From Escherichia phage ST2, in sequence record OM982647: DNA of 64,000 bases; one strand, 5' to 3'. A program made the translations under genes and the position numbers. This document shows positions 4,461-35,665 of the stretch, in pieces. Positions within the stretch are counted from its first letter, which is position 1. Every line of letters starts with the position of its first letter. A model generated the notes under the pieces. That model was not told the DNA's origin. It was given only the letters and a program-made list of their open reading frames with translations, and did not search any database.

Positions 4461-5092
4461 TGTTCGCCTCGTAACATGGCACCTAGTGCACCGCCAGGGT
4501 GGAACTTAAGGAAGTCATTAGAGGTAAATCCACGTTCAGACGAAAGGTTGATAGCAAACGTATCGATAAGCGCTAACAACAATGTAGTGGACATAGTCGG
4601 AGCTAAAGAGTTCTCGTCAACTTCTACCGCGATACCGGTACAGAACGTATAATCAAAAAGAGCTTCGTATTCTTGTGGAATGTCAGGGTTACAATGTAAC
4701 AGAATCTGTTTAACCTGAGGACGAATCATACGAAGATGCTTAGCCACGCCTATCATTTCTTCAGTTTTACCAGAACGACTAATATGAATCAACACATCAT
4801 TAGGCGCAATGAATCCTGCATCACCGTGAGAATAATGCCCGGTGTTCAAGTACATACTCGGGATACCGAGTGAAGCAAATGTCTCAGAAGCTTTAGTTGC
4901 AATATTAGCATTCTTACCAACACCTGTAATAATTACTCGGCTTTCATAATTACTAAGTCCCGGGCGTCGAAGAGTTTCTAGAATAGCATTATAACGAGCA
5001 GGGTTTTGACTAATTACTTTGGCCATAGCGGCCAAAGAAGAAGCTTGTTTTATGATTGCGTCAATAGCGATAGTAATAGGAGTAGTTTTCAT
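4457..5092 (-). CDS. SIS-domain sugar-phosphate isomerase (arabinose-5-phosphate isomerase KdsD/GutQ-like, no CBS domains)
   Basis: 211 aa; SIS motifs VIITGVGKNANIA, HISRSGKT, C-terminal RGFTSNDFLKFHPGGALG typical of KdsD. Confidence 0.7.
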   Translation of the reverse strand: MKTTPITIAIDAIIKQASSLAAMAKVISQNPARYNAILETLRRPGLSNYESRVIITGVGKNANIATKASETFASLGIPSMYLNTGHYSHGDAGFIAPNDVLIHISRSGKTEEMIGVAKHLRMIRPQVKQILLHCNPDIPQEYEALFDYTFCTGIAVEVDENSLAPTMSTTLLLALIDTFAINLSSERGFTSNDFLKFHPGGALGAMLRGEQ

Positions 5093-5132
5093 ATTTCTCT
5101 CATTTAATTAGTTTACCGTCCATGACATTATA

Positions 5133-7844
5133 TCAAAAATCGAACATATCGAACAGAGATGCTTTCTTCTCGTAATCGAGTTTCGCTGCTGATGTGAATC
5201 CTTCAAGTGGTTTAATAAATGTCTTCTCAAGGAGAACAGTGTAGTCCATCCAATGAAGTACATCGTCTTTAATTAAATCTGTGATTTCAGTACCAGAAGG
5301 CCATGCGATACATTTATCACCGAATGGGTTTCCTTCGCGTAAAGGCAGAACATATACTTTTTCACCTTCTACAACTTGTGGAGCATCGATATTACCTTTG
5401 ATAGCTCGGTTATATGTCAGAATTCCACGAATATGGAACGGGCATTTGGGACCAGGGAATCCACCAACGTCATATTTAGCAATGTTATTCGCAGAAGATA
5501 CCGACGCGATGCTAATATAATTCAATTGACGGAATTCTTTTTCAAACTCTTTAAAATATTCTTGTAATGATTCTTCACCTTCTTGAAGCATACGACGAAT
5601 ACATTCTTTAAGAGCTTTCTGTACTGCTTTAGGGGTCGAAGATTTCTGAGTCTCTAGACCCATGATTTTGAGTTTAGGCTCAGCGTAACGAGTACCTTCC
5701 ATATCCCACACGTTTAATGCATAACGTTTCTTACCGGTCCAGAATCCACCAATACCTTTAGAACCGAGCGGAGGACCAGCGATAGCTTCTCGGTCCATGA
5801 ACATTAAGTGTTGTTTATTGTTCATGTATTCACACATTTCACGGAAACCTCTATCAATAGCTGGTTCCATACGTTCACGTGCAAACTTATCTAAGAAGTC
5901 TACCCAATGGTTAGTATCACGGAATTTAGATTCGCCAACCTTATCAATAATTTTATCTGCAGATACATAAATGGAGTCTGTATCACCATATAGAACGAAA
6001 GCTTCGCCTTCTGTACCACAAACTTCATTCAGATATTCATTAACTTTACGTTCAATCCACTGTAAAGCCATTTGACCAAATGTTGTGATTGCAGTTGCAT
6101 TACGCAAATCGTAATAACGGAACCAAACGTTTCCAAGTGCACCATAAAGAGAGTTGATGAGCAATTTACGGTTAATCTGTGCAGTCATACCTGCAACTTC
6201 AGTACGTTGAGCTCTAAACAACATTTCATTAAGAGATTTAGCAGACAACTTTTTAATCTTTTCTTTAATCTCGTCAGTGAAGTCGAAACGATAATCAACA
6301 TCTAATGGTTCATCAACAGAAAGATTAGGATTATGCAAGGCCTCTTTAATTATTTCACCATTACGTTGAGCTGCAAGCATGTAACCTTTATGTTCTTTAC
6401 GTTGATTAAAGACCTTAGTGATTTCAGTTGGAACTACACCATCACGGTCTTTATAATACATCATGCCGTTAGGAGAACAACTGTACACATCAGAAGGACG
6501 TTCAGCAACAGCGTTAATATAATCATGCAGCGGAGCTACTTTAAACGTTCCTGCTATTGTTTCCGGGCTAATATTCACTTGGCGAATAATACTTGGATAC
6601 AGAGATGTAAGGTCGAAACTCATTACATATTTGTATCGATTTGGAATAGGTTCCTTAACAAAAGCGCCAGGATAAGGTTGAACCGGGTGAGAACGACCTT
6701 GTGGAATCACCTTGTTCTGCTCTTTAAGGCTATTAAAAATAATAGCATCCCATGTTTTAATTGGACTGAACACAGATTGAATCTGAATTTTAGCATAATA
6801 ACCCATGTCCAAACTCAAGTTGATGAACTGACGCTTAGCATCGATTTGCAATACACGATACACGTCGATAATGTTATAAGAAATATATCGTTGGTGATTG
6901 CTTTCACGAAGCTTAGAAATAGGGCCGTCATATTTCAGTTTACCGACATTCAATTCAAATTCTGAAATGTAATCCAGAGAATACGACGGTTGGTTTGTGA
7001 AAGAGAATTTTTTGTAAAGGTCAATGTAATCAAGAACAGAGATACCGAACAATGTAATGATTTCACGAGAACCATACATGTTTTCGATAACTTTAACACG
7101 AGTTTTACGATGTGGTGACAACCGTTTCGCAGTAGATTCGCCAAAAATATTCTTGATTCTGTTATACACATATGGAATATCAAATGACTCAACGTTCCAT
7201 CCAGTCAAAATGACAGGAGTTTTCTGTTGCCAGAAGTTGAGATATTCCATCAATAATTCTTTTTCATTATCAAACGGCATATAAACGATTTTGTCGATAA
7301 TTTCGGATGGAACTTCATCACCACCTTGTTCTTGAAGCTTAGCCGCAATTTCGATAGACCATTCTTCTACATTACCATATGGAGAATTCAATAGATCAAA
7401 TACGTAGAACCTGTCGTCAATTGAGTCATAATGGGTGATAGCATCAATAGGATGTTTTGCTTGTGACGGCTCAGGGAACCCGTCCGGAGATGTTACTTCG
7501 ATGTCGAAGTTAGCCACACGAATTTTTGTATGGTCGTATTTGATTTCATAGTTATAAGTGTCAGACAAATACGCCAATTTAAAATCGTCCATGCCAAGTG
7601 CTTCAAGTCCGATATCTTCCATGCGTTTAATCCATTGGGAGGCATCACGCATATTAGCGAACAACTTACGAGTACACGGTTTACCGTAGATATCGAAATA
7701 TTTCGTAGCCTGACTTTCTGGACAATGAGCAAACAGTGATGGTTTATATTCTACTTCACGAGTACGTTCACGGCCATTAGAATCGATGTAACGTTCAAAA
7801 ATTGAATCACCAATCTGTTCAACCGTTAAGTAAAATTCTTTCAT
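5133..7844 (-). CDS. 43: DNA polymerase (B family) gp43
   Basis: 903 aa; exonuclease motif ANFDIEV and polymerase motif YGDTDS; T4 gp43 size and position. Confidence 0.97.
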   Translation of the reverse strand: MKEFYLTVEQIGDSIFERYIDSNGRERTREVEYKPSLFAHCPESQATKYFDIYGKPCTRKLFANMRDASQWIKRMEDIGLEALGMDDFKLAYLSDTYNYEIKYDHTKIRVANFDIEVTSPDGFPEPSQAKHPIDAITHYDSIDDRFYVFDLLNSPYGNVEEWSIEIAAKLQEQGGDEVPSEIIDKIVYMPFDNEKELLMEYLNFWQQKTPVILTGWNVESFDIPYVYNRIKNIFGESTAKRLSPHRKTRVKVIENMYGSREIITLFGISVLDYIDLYKKFSFTNQPSYSLDYISEFELNVGKLKYDGPISKLRESNHQRYISYNIIDVYRVLQIDAKRQFINLSLDMGYYAKIQIQSVFSPIKTWDAIIFNSLKEQNKVIPQGRSHPVQPYPGAFVKEPIPNRYKYVMSFDLTSLYPSIIRQVNISPETIAGTFKVAPLHDYINAVAERPSDVYSCSPNGMMYYKDRDGVVPTEITKVFNQRKEHKGYMLAAQRNGEIIKEALHNPNLSVDEPLDVDYRFDFTDEIKEKIKKLSAKSLNEMLFRAQRTEVAGMTAQINRKLLINSLYGALGNVWFRYYDLRNATAITTFGQMALQWIERKVNEYLNEVCGTEGEAFVLYGDTDSIYVSADKIIDKVGESKFRDTNHWVDFLDKFARERMEPAIDRGFREMCEYMNNKQHLMFMDREAIAGPPLGSKGIGGFWTGKKRYALNVWDMEGTRYAEPKLKIMGLETQKSSTPKAVQKALKECIRRMLQEGEESLQEYFKEFEKEFRQLNYISIASVSSANNIAKYDVGGFPGPKCPFHIRGILTYNRAIKGNIDAPQVVEGEKVYVLPLREGNPFGDKCIAWPSGTEITDLIKDDVLHWMDYTVLLEKTFIKPLEGFTSAAKLDYEKKASLFDMFDF

Positions 7845-33727: not shown

Positions 33728-33910
33728 TTATAGTGAATTCACGTAGTCAATGAGTTCTTGTTCTTTCCTGTCAAATGATTCCATCAATGCTTGATATTCT
33801 TCATCTGTTAAAGGAGCATATTCATCGTACGCATTGGTGGCTGCTTGCTCATCTAATAGGTCATGGATAAGTTCGAACAGTTTAGTTTTCTCTTCTTTGG
33901 ACAATTTCAT
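33728..33910 (-). CDS. hypothetical protein
   Basis: 60 aa acidic ORF. Confidence 0.45.
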   Translation of the reverse strand: MKLSKEEKTKLFELIHDLLDEQAATNAYDEYAPLTDEEYQALMESFDRKEQELIDYVNSL

Positions 33911-34134
33911 TTAGGTTCACCTTCTTTAACGAAATCTGGGTAAGGGTAAAATCCTGAGTAAAACCCTTCACCTTTATGATTGCTACAACCTTTGTTCGAA
34001 CAGTAACACCAATAATCAAAATCACAAGCCATTTCGTCATTGCATAAAGCAAAAACTACAGGCCATTCGCATTTTTCGCATTTAGCACCTGTAAGAATTT
34101 TTGTTTGACTCATAGCCATGTCACCTTTAAGCAA
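33907..34134 (-). CDS. Cys-rich zinc-finger-like protein
   Basis: 75 aa; CEKCEW ... CNDEMAC ... CYCSNKGC. Confidence 0.5.
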   Translation of the reverse strand: MLKGDMAMSQTKILTGAKCEKCEWPVVFALCNDEMACDFDYWCYCSNKGCSNHKGEGFYSGFYPYPDFVKEGEPK

Positions 34135-34337
34135 TATTCTTCTACATGTTGTTTACGGCCTTTCTTATCAATAAAGGTATATTCAACGAATGTTCCGATG
34201 TAGTCTTTATCTACATCATGTGGACTATTAATTGGACATTTTGTACGGCAAATGCGTTCCCATTGACGAATAATTACTGCCTTATTCTTTGGGTCATACG
34301 GATGTGGATAATGTATATTCATAACAATGGTTCCCAA
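34110..34337 (-). CDS. hypothetical protein
   Basis: 75 aa. Confidence 0.45.
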   Translation of the reverse strand: MGTIVMNIHYPHPYDPKNKAVIIRQWERICRTKCPINSPHDVDKDYIGTFVEYTFIDKKGRKQHVEEYCLKVTWL

Positions 34338-34816
34338 TCAACAATCACAATTTCTAGTTTAGTGGAATATGTATCTAAAATCTCTTCGATGACATCCCAG
34401 TTTCCACCACCGATACCTGCACCAATTCTTGGCATATAAATTACAGGCTTTGTTATCTTATTCTTTCCGAATTTATTTAATTCTATTATACAATTCATTA
34501 AAGCAGAGTACTCAAAATTAGGTCCAGGCTCAAACTGTGTATAAAGATTAAAACAATAAGCTTTATGGGTCTTAAAATATTTTTCATAAACCGAATAAGA
34601 CCCGAGTTTAGATTCATCTCCGAATTCGGTTTGAAGTTTATCGGCTTCCAGAATTTTTGGATAAGCCTTTGCTAATTGTCCTGCTACACCAGCGCCCATT
34701 GTATGAAAACAATTACACCCATGAGCAATATTATTACCTTTAGAAAACAGGGCGACAATATCGCCCTTGATATAGTTTTTAATCACTTGCTGCAAGTCCT
34801 CTAGTATAAGAGTCAA
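34319..34816 (-). CDS. macro-domain protein (ADP-ribose binding/processing)
   Basis: 165 aa; NIAHGCNCFHTMGAGVAGQLA and later GAGIGGG glycine-rich loops. Confidence 0.65.
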   Translation of the reverse strand: MTLILEDLQQVIKNYIKGDIVALFSKGNNIAHGCNCFHTMGAGVAGQLAKAYPKILEADKLQTEFGDESKLGSYSVYEKYFKTHKAYCFNLYTQFEPGPNFEYSALMNCIIELNKFGKNKITKPVIYMPRIGAGIGGGNWDVIEEILDTYSTKLEIVIVDWEPLL

Positions 34817-35126
34817 CTAGACGGTCCACCATAGAATTGCATGCCGCCTTATCTTTAGGTTCCGCCACCGAGCATTCTAATATTTGCCATTTTTTATGAT
34901 ATCGTTTAATTAAGGTAGACGCCTTGAACCTACTAGACGCCCCATCTTTTTCTCCGTCTTTATACGCATATAACAATTTTTGTGAAAAATCTACTTTACA
35001 CTCTTGACTTTTACCACAATAATCGGACGCCGTTCTGTTTGTATACTCCGTTACATCAGTATATGTAGTATTAGCAAGAGCGTTAAATGAAACCAAGCCA
35101 ACTATTAAAGCCAACATTTTGGTCAT
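34779..35126 (-). CDS. secreted hypothetical protein
   Basis: 115 aa; N-terminal signal peptide; paired cysteines. Confidence 0.5.
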   Translation of the reverse strand: MTKMLALIVGLVSFNALANTTYTDVTEYTNRTASDYCGKSQECKVDFSQKLLYAYKDGEKDGASSRFKASTLIKRYHKKWQILECSVAEPKDKAACNSMVDRLVDSYTRGLAASD

Positions 35127-35665
35127 TCTTTTATTTCCAGTAGTTTATTTGATTTAAGGTAATTAGCCTTTTCTAGGACTTCAGAAGCATATTTACTTCC
35201 AGCACTTGTCTTCCATCCCGCATTATATGAGGATATAGCTTTTCTTATATCCCCATTATGTATATTTAACCAATAAGAAAATTCGATATAAGCCCATCTG
35301 GCTGAATTAGACCGCTTAGATAGCATTTTCTTAATTTGGGCATCAGTCATATTATAACCAAGCTGGTTAATTCTTGCCCTCATTGTTGGTAGATAATTTT
35401 GGAACATTCCATACGCATGGTGACCTTTCTTATCTTTAAGATTAATACCGGCAGATGATTCCTGCCATAGTATTGCGGCCATTATGTATCCAAGTCCTTT
35501 CTTATGCATATTTTCATGCGTTTTAAATTTTCCGTCCTTAGAAAACTGTTCCCCAAACTGATAAGCATAATTCAAGTTATCGAGTTGGACATTACTAAAA
35601 GTATGCTCGGAGCTATGTGCTGATAATGAAAGAGCAAATAGACCAGCGAGTAGTGCTTTTCTCAT
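35123..35665 (-). CDS. secreted lytic-transglycosylase-like (SLT domain) protein
   Basis: 180 aa; signal peptide; ILWQESS ... YGMFQ motif. Confidence 0.6.
   Translation of the reverse strand: MRKALLAGLFALSLSAHSSEHTFSNVQLDNLNYAYQFGEQFSKDGKFKTHENMHKKGLGYIMAAILWQESSAGINLKDKKGHHAYGMFQNYLPTMRARINQLGYNMTDAQIKKMLSKRSNSARWAYIEFSYWLNIHNGDIRKAISSYNAGWKTSAGSKYASEVLEKANYLKSNKLLEIKE

Follow-up and report, generated by a model that had tools for sequence, protein, structure and literature searches.

A stand-alone macrodomain protein of an RB69-like phage, orthologous to T4 Tk.4/AdfM, as a candidate eraser of DarT2 marks

DarTG systems stop phages by ADP-ribosylating phage DNA, and orphan antitoxin-like erasers would give T-even phages a way of escape. 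A minus-strand gene of Escherichia phage ST2 (sequence record OM982647) raises the question of whether its product, for which a macrodomain had been proposed from the sequence, belongs to these erasers, and which chemistry it would use. In the following, the window denotes the whole stretch of ST2 DNA that was analysed, 64,000 nucleotides long. The gene is already annotated, and the role of its T4 orthologue is already known genetically. Near-identical phage genes are labelled "macro domain protein" or "phosphatase" in GenBank, and the T4 record describes tk.4 as "phosphatase; contains A1pp phosphatase motif". With gene and role described before, what is new here is an invariant glutamine at the catalytic-lysine position of T4-type AdfM.

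Gene call and position of tk.4

An open reading frame is present on the minus strand at 34319..34816. It encodes 165 residues when read from a TTG codon and carries both glycine-rich strings quoted in the original prediction. The only factual error of that prediction concerns the start, which had been placed at TTG 34816. In the T4 group, tblastn alignments start only at residue 11 of the 165-residue frame and leave the first 10 residues uncovered. The counterparts in JK45 and APCEc01, which are near-identical to the window gene, are annotated with a length of 468 nt. T4 Tk.4 has 155 residues; in the DNA alignment, its ATG stands precisely opposite a GTG of the window, at 34784-34786. Moreover, the T4 stretch matching 34787..34816 is out of frame with tk.4, owing to a 1-nt indel. 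A Shine-Dalgarno-like GAGGA (34797..34801, minus strand), 10 nt upstream of the GTG, recurs at the equivalent position of T4 and JK45. Because the homologue alignments, the JK45 and APCEc01 annotations, the T4 ATG and the conserved GAGGA all favour it, GTG 34786 is almost certainly the start of tk.4, and the TTG was rejected. The gene would then span 34319..34786 (minus strand, GTG start, TGA stop) and encode a stand-alone macrodomain protein of 155 rather than 165 residues. The 10 in-frame codons extending up to the TTG (34787..34816, minus strand) lie inside the 3' end of vs and are probably untranslated as part of the macrodomain protein.

Over the 3.1 kb around tk.4, the window shares 98% identity with T-even phages of the Mosigvirus (RB69-like) type, among them APCEc01, UGJNEcP1 and JK45. 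On these sequence grounds, the window is that of a Mosigvirus-type T-even phage. The gene order tk, tk.1, tk.2, tk.3, tk.4, vs, vs.1, regB is identical in the window and in T4, on one strand throughout; among the three small genes that follow tk, the second encodes a phage zinc-binding domain and the third DUF7202. Upstream, tk.4 adjoins vs, the valyl-tRNA synthetase modifier gene (34779..35126, minus strand; PHROG 1256, E 1.8e-35; T4 synteny). Downstream lies tk.3 (34110..34322, minus strand), assigned from Pfam DUF7202 (E 2e-38) and from the annotations of relatives. The vs stop overlaps the tk.4 GTG in GTGATTAA, and the tk.4 stop overlaps the tk.3 ATG in ATGA. Overall, vs.1, vs, tk.4, tk.3, tk.2 and tk.1 (33907-35665, minus strand) are chained by such stop/start overlaps, ATGA four times and GTGATTAA once. 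This six-gene chain suggests translational coupling of the whole block and fits co-transcription. Searches for a promoter of its own at tk.4 gave 8 sigma-70-like sites, fewer than the 14.2 expected in shuffled sequence, and a terminator scan at the locus returned nothing above shuffled controls.

The window protein is 85% identical to T4 Tk.4 (NP_049723) over its full length, with 131 of 155 positions identical, 24 substitutions and no gaps. Both genes share the position between vs and tk.3, the tk-to-regB order, the start position, the Shine-Dalgarno sequence and every family-invariant residue. On the other hand, T4 tk.4 starts with ATG and overlaps vs by 4 nt, whereas the window gene starts with GTG and overlaps vs by 8 nt. 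In the loop IGAGIG(G/K)GNW, T4 Tk.4 also has a lysine in place of G127 of the window protein, whose glycine is the family consensus. Orthology is near-certain from these comparisons, and we take the gene to be the RB69-group orthologue of T4 tk.4/adfM.

Some further features of the locus deserve mention. A GC-rich hairpin with an 8-bp stem, followed by a T-run (AGGGCGATATTGTCGCCCT GTTTTCT), lies at 34749-34767 (minus strand), 20 nt into the tk.4 coding region. It falls within a 26-nt run identical in T4, but its fold z-score is only -1.8 and, by a rough estimate, an identity of 26 nt is not unusual at T4 divergence. It was rejected as a terminator and probably reflects codon constraint or chance. 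Vs (34779-35126, minus strand; 4887-5234, minus strand, at locus L002) has a signal-peptide-like hydrophobic N-terminus (MTKMLALIVGLVSFNALA followed by NT) and four conserved cysteines. The same signal-peptide-like segment and four cysteines are found in T4 Vs, which is 67% identical. Judged from the sequence, such an N-terminus and cysteines look unusual if Vs binds a cytoplasmic synthetase, as its annotation has it. According to a HIDEN-SEQ preprint, no T4 gene was more strongly depleted than vs during growth in minimal medium (bioRxiv 10.1101/2025.11.20.689424). The vs.1 orthologue (35123-35665, minus strand) also has a signal-peptide-like N-terminus (MRKALLAGLFALSLSAHS), together with a sub-threshold match to the SLT lytic-transglycosylase model (18.8 bits, cut-off 21.3); the JK45 entry in GenBank wrongly calls it "endoribonuclease RegB". 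JK45 (L001, MK962757.1) is filed as a Tequatrovirus and APCEc01 (L003, NC_029091.1) as a Mosigvirus, and each is about 98% identical to the window over the 3.1 kb.

Fold and active site

The window protein matches Pfam Macro (PF01661) with 27.7 bits, above the gathering cut-off of 22, and covers positions 2-117 of the 118 of the profile. It also matches PHROG 335 ("phosphatase") with an E-value of 3e-66. A profile built from 61 homologues and compared with solved structures finds BT1257 (7e-17), TARG1 (7e-16), SCO6735 (8e-15) and Poa1p (8e-14), then the DarG structures (1e-13 and 6e-12), while viral nsp3 macrodomains reach only 2e-4. In a confident AF2 model (pLDDT 94.9, pTM 0.90), the window protein adopts the macro fold of three alpha/beta/alpha layers, including the two glycine-rich loops predicted to bind ADP-ribose. 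The nearest neighbours in sequence and structure are ALC1-like proteins (TARG1, DarG, Poa1p, SCO6735 and BT1257) and not the MacroD, PARG or viral nsp3 groups; Poa1p is as close a structural neighbour as the others. Pfam, profile matches and model bear out the proposed macrodomain fold, and a stand-alone macrodomain of the ALC1-like class is near-certain as regards the fold.

Conservation was evaluated over 121 sequences, namely the window protein plus the 120 homologues that match it best. Residues H22, G23, N25, G33, A35, D49, G62 and N80 never or almost never vary, and the same holds for Y82, T83, Q84, P119, I121, G122, G124 and W130. Most of these positions lie in three segments of the minus strand. 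The first ADP-ribose-binding loop (residues 22-35, HGCNCFHTMGAGVA; 34682..34723) contains the (near-)invariant H22, G23, N25, G33 and A35. The family signature NLYTQ (residues 80-84; 34535..34549) has N80, Y82 and Q84 in 121 of the 121 sequences. The second, phosphate-binding glycine-rich loop (residues 119-130, PRIGAGIGGGNW; 34397..34432) contains the invariant P119, I121, G122, G124 and W130. At the four positions N25, Q84, G122 and G124, the residue is retained in 119 to 121 of the 121 sequences.

In the profile alignment, Q84 falls on K84, the catalytic lysine of TARG1. When the reference proteins are added to the family alignment with MAFFT, Q84 is superimposed on Q85 of SCO6735, on the corresponding glutamine of BT1257, on K84 of TARG1 and on the lysine of the PTK motifs of DarG and PhiKZ gp104. 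The motif at this catalytic position reads NLYTQ in the window protein, NMIGQ in SCO6735 and BT1257, YLITK in TARG1, NFPTK in DarG and MFPTK in PhiKZ gp104. The SCO6735 counterparts of H22, N25, Q84, G122 and G124 are H24, N27, Q85, G126 and G128, respectively; the numbering used reproduces the published H24, V25, N27, K34, Q85, G87, K89, G126 and G128. In SCO6735, activity is abolished by Q85A, almost abolished by N27S and reduced by G128E (PMC9411070). The thymidine-ADP-ribose that DarT makes on DNA is removed by SCO6735 more rapidly than by DarG or TARG1, and the authors of that work proposed a water-mediated, lysine-free mechanism (PMC9411070). By its residues, the window protein would have a Gln-type active site on a short-loop scaffold, and not the lysine type of DarG and TARG1.

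Likeness to SCO6735 of Streptomyces coelicolor and BT1257 of Bacteroides thetaiotaomicron is partial; these cellular housekeeping or stress proteins are non-phage and 23-32% identical to the window protein. The glutamine and a conserved asparagine at the active site are common to all three. In contrast, the mobile loop after the glutamine is 5-6 residues longer in SCO6735 and BT1257, a length by which their subclass is defined, whereas in the window protein it has the length seen in TARG1 and DarG, and the signature is N-M-I-G-Q instead of the N-x-Y-T-Q of the window family. K34 of SCO6735 is replaced by A32 (Ala, Ser or Gly in 117 of the 121 sequences), and K89 belongs to the missing loop segment. 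With the long mobile loop, K34 and K89 all missing, full membership of the SCO6735/BT1257 subclass was rejected. Because K34 and K89, which position the DNA, are absent, the DNA-binding mode of SCO6735 is not transferable to the window protein.

The window protein also differs from DarG (T. aquaticus, M. tuberculosis; identity about 21%). DarG has a catalytic lysine, K80, where all 121 sequences of the window family have glutamine. DarG also carries a C-terminal DarT-binding domain after its macrodomain, whereas the window protein ends at residue 155 and consists of the macrodomain only. The DarG equivalog model NF048014 gives 32 bits against a cut-off of 250 and is covered at positions 4-146 of 338. 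No darT gene adjoins the window gene, which lies between vs and tk.3. Membership of the DarG equivalog was rejected on the score, the lack of the C-terminal domain, the glutamine in place of K80 and the neighbourhood. In human TARG1/OARD1, the catalytic dyad K84/D125 corresponds to Q84/G126 of the window protein. The active-site residues probed in the structures of Poa1p are H23, S30 and F152. TARG1 acts mainly on Glu/Asp-linked ADP-ribose of proteins, and yeast Poa1p on ADP-ribose-1''-phosphate.

A further conserved position lies outside the two loops and the signature. D49 (34638-34640, minus strand), in the motif EADK of the helix that follows the first glycine-rich loop, is found in 121 of 121 family members. 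SCO6735, BT1257, TARG1 and DarG lack a counterpart of D49 and have a Tyr or Leu at the aligned position.

Predicted role against DarTG2

Genetic data on the T4 orthologue point to a host defence as the target. Even when adfA and adfN are both missing, T4 remains fully resistant to DarTG2, and AdfN, which is of the NADAR type, acts on guanosine marks only (PMC11825919). The resistance that persists without adfA and adfN predicted a further anti-DarTG2 factor, and the tk.4 finding filled that gap. As reported in a 2025 preprint, growth of a T4 transposon library on a DarTG2 host (HIDEN-SEQ) singled out tk.4 as the one significant gene, and T4 carrying a clean deletion of tk.4 was sensitised to DarTG2; the gene was renamed adfM, for anti-DarT factor Macrodomain (bioRxiv 10.1101/2025.11.20.689424). 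The main text of the preprint names tk.4 as a hit in connection with DarTG2 and no other system (bioRxiv 10.1101/2025.11.20.689424). The reversal of a host ADP-ribosylation-based defence, put forward in the original prediction, finds support in these results, obtained with an 85%-identical and syntenic orthologue. The check proposed there, in which a deletion mutant is plated on DarTG hosts, has in effect been carried out by others in T4, with sensitisation to DarTG2 as the outcome reported in the preprint. The anti-DarTG2 phenotype is known for T4 only, and the copy of the window phage would be expected to protect in the same manner. More generally, an intact adfM in an RB69-group phage predicts DarTG2 resistance, which would be of use in host-range prediction and in the choice of therapy phages.

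In the mechanism that we propose, the AdfM orthologue would be expressed from the leftward cluster vs.1, vs, tk.4, tk.3, tk.2, tk.1, and its main job would be to shield replicating phage DNA from the DarTG2 toxin-antitoxin defence of the host. It would bind the ADP-ribose that DarT2 has put on thymidine in single-stranded DNA and, as a phage-borne orphan antitoxin, would hydrolyse the bond between ribose and base. Gln84, held by Asn25 between the two glycine-rich loops, would stand in the place of the lysine, as Gln85 does in SCO6735. Because the invariant Gln84 sits at the lysine position, like Gln85 of SCO6735, catalysis is probably lysine-free and water-mediated. On the whole of the evidence, it appears likely to us that the window gene is an AdfM orthologue which protects phage DNA by hydrolysing DarT2-made thymidine-ADP-ribose with Gln-type chemistry. 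Hydrolysis of T-linked ADP-ribose by the window protein, considered by itself, is rated nearly as high.

Literature searches found no biochemical work on Tk.4. The preprint suggests a DarG-like removal of ADP-ribose from DNA by T4 AdfM, which, given without an assay, "seems likely" to its authors (bioRxiv 10.1101/2025.11.20.689424). Since a glutamine is found where DarG, TARG1 and PhiKZ AdfM have the catalytic lysine, the DarG-like mechanism assumed for T4-type AdfM probably needs to be adjusted towards the SCO6735 type.

Protection might depend less on removing the mark than on binding, DarT2 being neutralised mainly through stoichiometric inhibition, by capture of the toxin or of its DNA substrate. 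The inactive mutants SCO6735 Q85A, DarG K80A and TARG1 K84A all inhibit DarT in vitro, most strongly in the case of SCO6735 (PMC9411070), and part of the protection could therefore be non-catalytic. In addition, AdfA and AdfB, the other known anti-DarT factors of phages, seem to be toxin binders (PMC11825919). However, the 155 residues of the window protein, compared with the 338 positions of the DarG model, leave it without the C-terminal domain by which DarG binds DarT. Furthermore, the pocket and catalytic positions N25, Q84, G122 and G124 are unvarying across the homologues, which is an enzyme-like pattern. Binding is a plausible contribution to the inhibition of DarT2 and is unlikely as its sole mechanism; we consider it improbable that it accounts for most of the effect.

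We regard as equally improbable that the main substrate of the protein is a small ADP-ribose derivative, namely ADP-ribose-1''-phosphate, O-acetyl-ADP-ribose or a Thoeris-type immune signal, and not modified DNA. Such a substrate would agree with the historical "A1pp phosphatase" annotation, with the similarity to Poa1p and with the general argument of PMC9503650. Against it, the only phenotype known for the orthologue, as given in the preprint, is specific to DarTG2, a DNA-modifying system, and the closest relatives with solved structures, those of the BT1257/SCO6735 group, act on DNA-linked ADP-ribose. For the Thoeris connection raised in the original prediction, as for its idea that the protein regulates the phage's own ADP-ribosyltransferases, we found no supporting evidence. 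T-even phages do encode three ADP-ribosyltransferases, a point in favour of the latter. Even though ADP-ribose attached to proteins is a further substrate of the ALC1-like TARG1 and SCO6735 (PMC9411070), a role in erasing or tuning the ADP-ribosylation or RNAylation of host proteins by Alt, ModA and ModB is highly improbable, as tk.4 is unlinked to the alt/mod genes, having vs and tk.3 as neighbours, and is treated as conditionally essential, with a defect that the preprint reports specifically on DarTG2 hosts.

Phage macrodomain lineages and spread of the family

The reading of the window protein as a hydrolase of DarT2 marks finds a parallel in PhiKZ gp104, also called "AdfM", which is likewise a stand-alone phage macrodomain directed against DarTG2 and for which the same orphan-antitoxin logic has been proposed. 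This DarG2-like antitoxin of a chimallivirus removes DarT2 marks from DNA in vitro (Cell Rep 2026, PMC13309987) and is imported into the phage nucleus (PMC13309987). It matches M. tuberculosis DarG with an E-value of 9e-25 and keeps the FPTK catalytic-lysine motif. Its identity to the window protein is 18%, with an hhalign probability of 96.5, and the two were not equated, gp104 belonging to a separate, Lys-type lineage.

Two macrodomain lineages that differ in mechanism may have been recruited against DarT2, one by T-even phages and the other by nucleus-forming jumbo phages. In this case, the T4/RB69-type AdfM could be a minimal, Gln84-dependent glycohydrolase with a new mode of binding modified DNA, because it is devoid of the long mobile loop and of the DNA-positioning lysines of SCO6735, the closest relative that has been characterised. 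As part of the same reading, its substrate range might extend, for example, to RNA or protein that other defence transferases have ADP-ribosylated. We advance this joint reading tentatively. A broader substrate range, if true, could explain the wide spread of the family.

Matches to the window protein are found by tblastn in 2,799 of the 50,697 phage records. The carriers include Felixounavirus, Vi01-like phages, Pakpunavirus, Campylobacter phages and cyanophages. In the three contexts of non-T-even homologues that were examined, all of them phage-like contigs, no DarT was found, and a cellular, DarT-linked source of the family draws no support from these three.

Two phage macrodomains that are not orthologues, the Lys-type PhiKZ gp104 and the Gln-type T4 Tk.4, were independently named AdfM. 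This clash of nomenclature is a likely source of annotation errors. Finally, a phage-like metagenomic contig (L007/L008; 4001-4741 and 6309-6623) encodes a 246-residue macrodomain homologue three genes upstream of a gene with a cREC_REC domain. This domain has been predicted elsewhere to process ADP-ribose derivatives.
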